A program made the translations under genes and the position numbers. From a virus (lineage: Duplodnaviria > Heunggongvirae > Uroviricota > Caudoviricetes), in the IMG/VR virus record IMGVR_UViG_2698536408_000009, positions 1 through 5,537 of that record: DNA of 5,537 nt; one strand, given 5' to 3'. Positions 4,860 through 5,252 of the stretch are shown piece after piece. Under the pieces are notes generated by a model that was given only the letters and a program-made list of their open reading frames with translations, was not told where the DNA came from and did no database searches. The number at the start of each line of letters is the position of its first letter. Positions within the stretch are counted from its first letter, which is position 1.

Positions 4860-4936
4860 GGCCCTTTAGCTCAGTTGGTCAGAGCGAGCGACTCATAATC
4901 GCCAGGTCGCTGGTTCAAGTCCAGCAAGGGCCACCA
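4860..4936 (+). tRNA. tRNA-Ile2 (anticodon CAU, lysidine type; ileX/ileZ-like), 77 nt with encoded CCA
   Basis: Hand-folded cloverleaf: acceptor GGCCCTT/AAGGGCC, D-stem GCTC/GAGC, anticodon loop CTCATAA, T-arm GCTGG-TTCAAGT-CCAGC. Anticodon and T arms match remembered E. coli ileX, so Ile2 rather than Met. Confidence 0.75.
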
Positions 4937-4937
4937 A

Positions 4938-5014
4938 CCACCACTAGCTCATCCGGATAGAGCATCAACCTTCTAAGTTGACGGTGCGAGGTTCGAGTCC
5001 TCGGTGGTGGGCCA
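4938..5014 (+). tRNA. tRNA-Arg (anticodon UCU), phage-type, 77 nt with encoded CCA
   Basis: Hand-folded cloverleaf with all stems perfect: acceptor CCACCAC/GTGGTGG, D-stem GCTC/GAGC, anticodon stem TCAAC/GTTGA with loop CTTCTAA, T-arm CGAGG-TTCGAGT-CCTCG. Diverged from host argU; unusual C1:G72 first pair. Confidence 0.7.
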
Positions 5015-5016
5015 GC

Positions 5017-5092
5017 GCCGACTTAGCTCAGCAGGCAGAGCAACTGACTTGTAATCAGTAGGTCACCAGTTCGATTCCGGTAGTCGGCACCA
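5017..5092 (+). tRNA. thrU: tRNA-Thr (anticodon UGU), thrU-like, 76 nt
   Basis: Acceptor GCCGACT/AGTCGGC, anticodon loop CTTGTAA, T-loop TTCGATT; matches remembered E. coli thrU apart from possibly two D-loop positions I cannot verify. Confidence 0.8.
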
Positions 5093-5095
5093 TAT

Positions 5096-5170
5096 GCGGG
5101 CATCGTATAATGGCTATTACCTCAGCCTTCCAAGCTGATGATGCGGGTTCGATTCCCGCTGCCCGCTCCA
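5096..5170 (+). tRNA. glyT: tRNA-Gly (anticodon UCC), glyT, 75 nt
   Basis: GCGGGCATCGTATAATGGCTATTACCTCAGCCTTCCAAGCTGATGATGCGGGTTCGATTCCCGCTGCCCGCTCCA matches remembered E. coli glyT. Confidence 0.9.
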
Positions 5171-5176
5171 AGATGT

Positions 5177-5252
5177 GCTGATATAGCTCAGTTGGTAGAG
5201 CGCACCCTTGGTAAGGGTGAGGTCGGCAGTTCGAATCTGCCTATCAGCACCA
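5177..5252 (+). tRNA. thrT: tRNA-Thr (anticodon GGU), thrT, 76 nt
   Basis: GCTGATATAGCTCAGTTGGTAGAGCGCACCCTTGGTAAGGGTGAGGTCGGCAGTTCGAATCTGCCTATCAGCACCA; 6-nt spacer after glyT and 114-nt spacer before tufB, as I remember for K-12. Confidence 0.9.

Follow-up and report, generated by a model that had tools for sequence, protein, structure and literature searches.

Results

Organisation of the locus

The window, that is, the whole stretch of DNA analysed here, is 5,537 nt long and corresponds to positions 1-5,537 of the record IMGVR_UViG_2698536408_000009. All coordinates below follow that numbering. Part of an IS2 element, a prophage segment, an array of tRNA genes and the beginning of a host tufB locus follow one another as listed.

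1-1130, + strand: right-hand 1130 bp of an IS2 element, with an orfB/InsD-type transposase ORF at 213-1118 (Pfam rve, rve_3 and HTH_21)
1234-2625, + strand: DnaB-like replicative helicase of the prophage (Pfam DnaB_C, E = 7.8e-73), collinear with S. sonnei prophage loci
2622-2879: hypothetical gene of 85 aa, the upstream neighbour of the RusA gene
2879-3250, + strand: RusA Holliday-junction resolvase (Pfam RusA)
3219-3626, + strand: antiterminator Q (Pfam Phage_antitermQ, E = 2.7e-52)
3654-3852, + strand: c4/isrK-type antisense RNA module with a1b1 targets, isrK and C4 (Rfam RF03163, RF01394 and RF01695, above the gathering score)
4107-4670, + strand: ORF6N-domain (antirepressor-like) gene, the final prophage protein gene 5' of the tRNAs (Pfam ORF6N, E = 9e-21)
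4746-4767, + strand: intrinsic-terminator-like hairpin followed by a T-run (tR'-like)
4821-4850, + strand: promoter-like site of the sigma-70 type (consensus match only: TTTGCA, 18-nt spacer, TATTAT; 9 of 12)
4860-4936, + strand: tRNA-Ile2 (CAU), phage (ARAGORN, Rfam; 100% identity with the prophage copy)
4938-5014, + strand: tRNA-Arg (UCU), phage (ARAGORN; identical to the prophage copy)
5017-5092, + strand: tRNA-Thr (UGU), phage allele C16/C20 (same as the prophage copy; host thrU differs at 2 positions)
5094-5170, + strand: exact phage/host identity of 77 bp, 'AT' plus tRNA-Gly (UCC) (three-way alignment and exact comparison)
5096-5170, + strand: tRNA-Gly (UCC) (ARAGORN, Rfam)
5171-5366, + strand: host segment made up of a 6-nt spacer, thrT (5177-5252) and the thrT-tufB leader (100% identity with the E. 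coli K-12-type locus)
5177-5252, + strand: tRNA-Thr (GGU), host thrT (ARAGORN, Rfam)
5367-5537, + strand: host tufB, first 171 nt (the tufB allele at all 8 sites separating tufA and tufB)

The DNA upstream of the tRNAs is a lambdoid prophage segment. Its exact RusA protein is on record under the source name Shigella sonnei, and the exact 187-aa ORF6N protein was found on more than 1000 contigs named Shigella sonnei. The look-up of the exact 135-aa Q ORF of the window returned two small contigs from one assembly. This count is uninformative on rarity because Q is mostly annotated as a protein of 128 aa with its start near 3240. Between Q and ORF6N, Rfam matches above the gathering score were obtained for the c4-a1b1 target (3654-3706), isrK (3667-3743) and C4 (3769-3852), and also for sRNA-Xcc1 (3986-4069). 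The c4 RNAs and the ORF6N gene together presumably resemble the P1/P7-type c4 antisense immunity module that controls an antirepressor-like gene, as in Salmonella Gifsy-1 IsrK.

ARAGORN found exactly five tRNA genes in the array, all on the + strand, and these are the same genes that a first-pass annotation of the sequence had placed at 4860-5252. Their Rfam tRNA scores range from 56 to 75 bits. The spacers between them are 1, 2, 3 and 6 nt in order, and the 2-nt gap noted earlier between Arg and Thr (5014/5017) was confirmed. The promoter-like site stands directly upstream of the array. An identical CAU gene is labelled tRNA-Ile by PGAP (NCBI) in an E. coli prophage, and the phage CAU gene shares 92% identity with the neighbouring host CAU tRNA, which is consistent with Ile2. 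Judged from anticodon and annotation, the CAU (AUA) and UCU (AGA) genes are assigned as tRNAs for host-rare codons. In the S. sonnei chromosomes, this host CAU tRNA, with IS1 copies on its flanks, is found some 10 kb 5' of the phage array, and it is another partial repeat near the prophage. From its map position, we take it to be possibly ileY.

The switch from phage to host DNA

The window was aligned with the prophage and with the host locus. Ile, Arg and Thr(UGU) proved to be 100% prophage alleles. Thr(UGU) carries C at positions 16 and 20 in the D-loop, whereas host thrU has T at both, and the host allele of thrU is not present in the array. The gene at 5017 had been taken for a host gene resembling thrU; it is the phage C16/C20 allele instead. 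Agreement with the prophage extends to 5170 and the sequence from 5171 on is that of the host, with 5094-5170 as the only part common to both. The phage-to-host switch is located somewhere inside 5094-5170, not between Arg and Thr. The weld had been proposed between those two genes; the breakpoint within tRNA-Gly is 77 bp downstream of that site. On the host side, 5094-5537 (glyT, 6 nt, thrT, leader and tufB) is contiguous and 100% identical to the E. coli K-12-type locus. Directly 3' of tRNA-Gly, the S. sonnei chromosomes read GCGAGATTTGAG... toward holin, while the window reads AGATGTGCTGAT... into thrT.

The ownership of the Thr and Gly genes was also clarified. In the prophage of E. coli RMDEC465, Q is followed by tRNA-Ile, Arg, Thr and Gly and then by holin/lysis genes, with spacers of 1, 2 and 3 nt as in the window. 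Thr(UGU) and Gly(UCC) are members of the phage module, not of the host operon. The earlier assignment of both genes to the host operon is contradicted by the Thr allele, the spacers and the intact prophages. The alternative that Thr(UGU) was phage-derived and that recombination took place inside it was right about the origin of the gene, but it named the wrong tRNA, as the breakpoint is in Gly. At the host locus, coaA and a 360-nt promoter region are found upstream, where prophage DNA stands in the window. The thrU-glyT interval of the host consists of 8 nt, tyrU (85 nt) and 116 nt, and in the window there is only a 3-nt spacer. Host tyrU and its spacers are missing from the window because the Thr(UGU)-Gly stretch has the phage arrangement rather than thrU-tyrU-glyT.

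The phage spacer TAT between Thr and Gly can be composed from host sequence, with T from the base 3' of thrU and AT from the two bases 5' of glyT. In this respect the phage pair resembles host thrU-tyrU-glyT after the clean loss of a 206-nt tyrU segment, a weak hint drawn from three nucleotides. By their likeness to the host genes, the Thr-Gly half of the phage module would evidently have been derived from the host thrU...glyT genes. The kinship sensed in the first-pass annotation between the array and the host operon thus has an evolutionary basis.

Occurrence of the module and of the junction

The phage-type Thr-TAT-Gly pair is common. At least 120 IMG/VR contigs have it, as do GTDB representative genomes at 7 sites, and a single genome can hold as many as three copies. 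The 127 pairs compared are the matches listed from IMG/VR (120) and GTDB (7). Among these listed pairs, tRNA-Gly is identical to host glyT in 109 of 127 and the Thr allele is identical to the host one in 75 of 127. The complete Ile-Arg-Thr-Gly array identical to that of the window occurs at 28 of the 127 listed loci. At least 21 different sequences follow tRNA-Gly 3' among the 127 listed pairs, and thrT directly after the phage pair was seen in none of them (0/127).

In intact prophages of E. coli and S. sonnei, Ile-Arg-Thr-Gly is positioned between Q/ORF6N and holin-lysozyme-Rz; the window itself holds only the upstream half of this Q-to-lysis context. All ten S. sonnei chromosomes examined have Ile-Arg-Thr-Gly with the spacing of the window. 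The four-tRNA array belongs to the well-known lambdoid/Stx late-region tRNA modules and is already annotated in many genomes. A conserved layout with identical spacers, which had been named as a finding that would speak against a weld, was therefore found for the first four genes, Ile-Arg-Thr-Gly, but the five-gene array was found in no complete genome examined.

These ten complete or near-complete S. sonnei chromosomes share the IS2-disrupted prophage and match window positions 1-5170 at 99.6-100%. All ten alignments end exactly at 5170 and then continue to holin/lysis genes. The prophage is located near pheA/bamE/recN, far from tufB. One S. sonnei prophage copy is 100% identical to the window over 4781-5170, and the array region can therefore be multi-copy even without counting glyT. 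Sampling of S. sonnei was based on look-up keys that are partial or alternative-start products of the ORF6N gene of the window. It gave 25 contigs that carry this prophage and run past tRNA-Gly (10 chromosomes and 15 independent drafts), and thrT follows tRNA-Gly in 0 of these 25. Beyond tRNA-Gly, 22 of them lead to the holin side and 3 to another phage-type sequence. These three drafts have the same ORF6N and Ile-Arg-Thr-Gly and continue with GTCAGAGTCTTT..., the type of the E. coli RMDEC465 prophage, which differs from the GCGAGATTTGAG continuation of all finished S. sonnei genomes. Either the prophages are truly mosaic at the tRNA-Gly boundary, or the GTCAGAGTCTTT continuation is a product of further mis-joins at that repeat.

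The junction itself is a different matter. The exact 100-nt junction pattern had 0 matches in GTDB representative genomes and 0 in IMG/VR. A symmetric 131-nt query gave no full-length match in 5,426 complete E. coli genomes, where it matched the ordinary host locus best. One match of 93% coverage in a complete E. coli genome was rejected as a junction; it is the ordinary host locus, reached through gapped alignment extension. A spurious 78-aa ORF running across Gly, thrT and the leader had no record on protein look-up.

The IS2 end and the draft assemblies

The IS2 part of the window was compared with two IS2 copies. Relative to the copy in situ in S. sonnei, the window shows 20 mismatches, all of them within 72-951, and is mismatch-free over 952-1130. 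With another IS2 copy, it agrees at every position of 1-1036 and has 7 mismatches at 1037-1103. The IS2 part is thus a mosaic of two copies, with the template switch within the 85-bp identity at 952-1036. This hybrid was present in none of the finished S. sonnei genomes compared. Every finished S. sonnei genome has a divergent IS2 in situ, marked by 20 private SNPs, and about 11 kb of this prophage lie between two IS2 copies in inverted orientation. Either an inversion between these two flanking copies generated the hybrid, or it is a consensus or bubble-popping artefact. Even if real, such an inversion would leave the junction at tRNA-Gly unexplained.

Both ends of the window fall in repeats, the left one within IS2 and the right one 36 nt into a 155-nt identity of tufA and tufB. 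Several other S. sonnei drafts end at repeat edges in this region, namely at window positions 5092 (twice, the end of Thr-UGU), 4789 (twice), 4758 and 4728. The tRNA array is a branch point at which cautious assemblers stop. In the closest assembly, GCA_001256535.1, the region is split into contigs of 1.7 and 3.6 kb, with two copies of the Q region, and these contigs share 100% and 99.9% identity with parts of the window. Contig CXEP01000389 of the same assembly lacks about 30 nt near the helicase start relative to the window (window 1240-1269). In BLAST, it is split into 1-95, which corresponds to window 1145-1239, and 84-2568, which corresponds to window 1270-3752, with a 12-nt overlap. Such a split points to a short direct repeat or to an indel polymorphism.

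A second contig with the same junction

The search of metagenomes with the exact 100-nt junction gave one match, contig OBXH01000948.1, the sole other instance found. The contig is 18.6 kb long, and the analysis covers its first 2,088 nt, up to the tuf leader. The upstream DNA is unrelated to the window and carries the A and B genes of an Stx2f-type Shiga toxin and a host-like Thr allele. The Thr-Gly pair lies about 510 nt downstream of stxB and is joined to thrT and the tufB leader. The match of the Stx2f phage phi467 to this contig, at 99.9%, stops at the last base of tRNA-Gly. OBXH01000948.1 is a second candidate phage-host chimera, and it involves a toxin phage. In assembled short-read data, thrT is thus found attached to two unrelated phages, each time at the shared 77-mer. 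A systematic graph artefact would be expected to recur in this way, at one repeat and with unrelated phages, in assembled data.

Discussion

A junction between prophage DNA and host thrT-tufB does exist in the window, as the first-pass annotation had said, and a chimeric contig was among the options that it offered. Its interpretation stands as to the presence of a phage-host junction and fails as to the position of the weld and the ownership of the genes. The join of the phage array to thrT-tufB is probably an assembler mis-join through an exact shared repeat, and its origin in the software is our inference. In favour of it are the breakpoint within an exact repeat, the absence of the junction from the finished genomes and drafts examined, the repeats at both ends of the contig, the independent template switch in IS2, the breaks of sister assemblies at the repeat edges and the recurrence in OBXH01000948.1. 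As a feature of the genome, the five-tRNA fusion is most likely spurious.

The proposed mechanism is as follows. The window would be a repeat-bounded short-read contig of a Shigella sonnei genome. The contig would be correct for the resident prophage, including IS2, the helicase, RusA, Q, the c4 RNAs, ORF6N and its own Ile2-Arg-Thr(UGU)-Gly(UCC). The 77-bp identity of tRNA-Gly and glyT would form one shared node of the assembly graph, with a phage and a host entry and with two exits, one to the phage (holin side) and the other to the host (thrT-tufB). The assembler would have come in on the phage branch and gone out on the host branch, giving a five-tRNA array that is absent from the cell. At the other end, the contig path would likewise have taken the majority IS2 sequence. 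In the real genome, the prophage most likely goes on to holin, lysozyme, Rz and terminase, and coaA, the thrU promoter, thrU, tyrU and glyT most likely precede thrT-tufB.

Some points speak against the mis-join. Modern assemblers with 150-bp reads usually resolve a 77-bp repeat. On the biological side, 77 bp of perfect identity is long enough for exchange by RecA, and Shigella genomes have undergone extensive rearrangement. OBXH01000948.1 can also be read as recurrent real recombination, and the hybrid IS2 is also expected from a real inversion between the flanking inverted copies.

These points lead to the alternative that the join is real and arose by homologous recombination of the RecA type between the prophage tRNA-Gly and chromosomal glyT. 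It could take the form of a large inversion, of the join point of a tandem duplication, or of a circular phage genome inserted into glyT in the Campbell manner. The required homology is available and perfect over 77 bp. The 3' end of tRNA-Gly is a mosaic boundary, and the variety of downstream sequences among the listed pairs indicates that real exchanges occur at or near this edge of the module. A second contig, from another phage, has thrT joined at the same place. A strain of this kind would be viable since tufB is dispensable; tufA exists as well. However, the join was seen in none of the 5,426 complete E. coli genomes, the 25 S. sonnei contigs and the 127 other listed phage pairs. Judging from the K-12 map, it would take a very large duplication, or else a large inversion that is asymmetric about the origin. 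An inversion or an insertion needs both junctions in one genome, and none of the 5,426 has the direct one. The contig also has a second unique recombinant, the IS2, at its other end. Two rare events on one contig of 5.5 kb are less likely than one behaviour of an assembler, which favours the mis-join. A real join of this sort is accordingly regarded as unlikely.

A broader version holds that the exchange at glyT took place in the S. sonnei prophage and independently between an Stx2f phage and E. coli, so that the host-derived tRNA genes of these phages would serve as portable homology, the chromosome would be rearranged through them and thrT-tufB would come under phage late-region control. We consider it quite improbable. 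A real join would deprive thrT and tufB of the thrU promoter. Their expression would then presumably rely on the promoter-like site (4821-4850) together with Q-dependent read-through past the terminator (4746-4767). The idea of a phage promoter feeding the host translation operon would hold only if the join is physically real, but no other genome supports it. The Campbell-type form, if true, would give the phage an integrase-independent route of integration at the tufB operon.

A native layout would mean that a phage carries thrT and the tuf leader, or that a host tufB operon natively reads Ile-Arg-Thr-Gly-Thr. In its favour, OBXH01000948.1 is one more contig with Thr-Gly-Thr followed by the tuf leader. 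Against it, phi467, the phage reference of that contig, stops at tRNA-Gly, thrT plus leader follows the pair in no phage record listed, and the layout is found in no complete genome examined. This reading is very unlikely. The fusion first proposed, of a two-tRNA phage module (Ile2 and Arg) with host thrU-glyT-thrT-tufB at the Arg/Thr gap or in Thr(UGU), is hardly credible: many Stx2 phage matches to the window do stop at 5014 and Thr(UGU) is 97% identical to host thrU, but the phage allele is followed by the phage-specific TAT spacer, host tyrU and the 124 nt of spacer between thrU and glyT are missing, and intact prophages have Ile-Arg-Thr-Gly with identical spacers and the lysis genes next.

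Under the mis-join, a five-tRNA 'operon' feeding tufB probably exists in no cell, and the biological weight of the fusion is most likely nil. The finding has another use. E. coli and Shigella lambdoid prophages with exact copies of host tRNA genes create repeats of 76-77 bp against the core tufB operon. This repeat length is close to common k-mer sizes, and phage-host chimeric contigs can therefore arise. Such chimeras mimic prophage boundaries, transduction events and operon fusions, and the window is a documented cautionary example. If the join were real after all, it would mean that host tRNA genes captured by phages drive chromosomal rearrangement and rewire a translation-factor operon.

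Comparison with known systems

The window shares with the E. coli thrU-tyrU-glyT-thrT-tufB operon glyT, the 6-nt spacer, thrT, the leader and the start of tufB, all 100% identical. It differs in that the coaA/thrU promoter region and tyrU are absent and the Thr(UGU) allele is not that of the host.

The array resembles the late-region modules of lambdoid and Stx phages. It stands 3' of Q and a tR'-like terminator and, in the intact prophage, 5' of the lysis genes. The first two specificities are also the same, Ile2-CAU and Arg-UCU, and Stx2 phage records align through Arg. Classical Stx phages such as 933W reportedly carry Ile and Arg tRNAs only. In 933W, ileZ-argN-argO are said to lie between Q/pR' and stx/lysis, as Plunkett et al. 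reportedly described in 1999. A search for ileZ/argN/argO within the set of papers covered returned nothing relevant. In contrast to the 933W-type module, there are four genes here, Ile-Arg-Thr(UGU)-Gly(UCC), and not Ile-Arg-Arg. Moreover, Thr and Gly are not rare-codon tRNAs but reproduce abundant host tRNA genes almost exactly.

The same Thr(UGU)-TAT-Gly(UCC) pair is carried by phi467 (LN997803), vB_EcoM-606R7, vB_EcoS-689R5, PhiR47_1 and JLK-2012, with 96-99% identity. The pair of phi467 comes after stx2f and has the host-like Thr allele, whereas that of the window comes after Ile and Arg and has the C16/C20 allele. The tRNA-Thr/tRNA-Gly pair of Stx2f phages has been described as a conserved phage landmark with variable downstream DNA (PMC5189129).

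Finally, the contig can be set beside the repeat chimeras known from de Bruijn graphs. A repeat of 77 bp is unusually short for a mis-join, and in this the window differs from them. In the other respects it agrees with them. The junction is absent from finished genomes, and sister assemblies break at the same node. Likewise, the breakpoint falls in an exact repeat near the k-mer length, and the contig is bounded by multicopy repeats.
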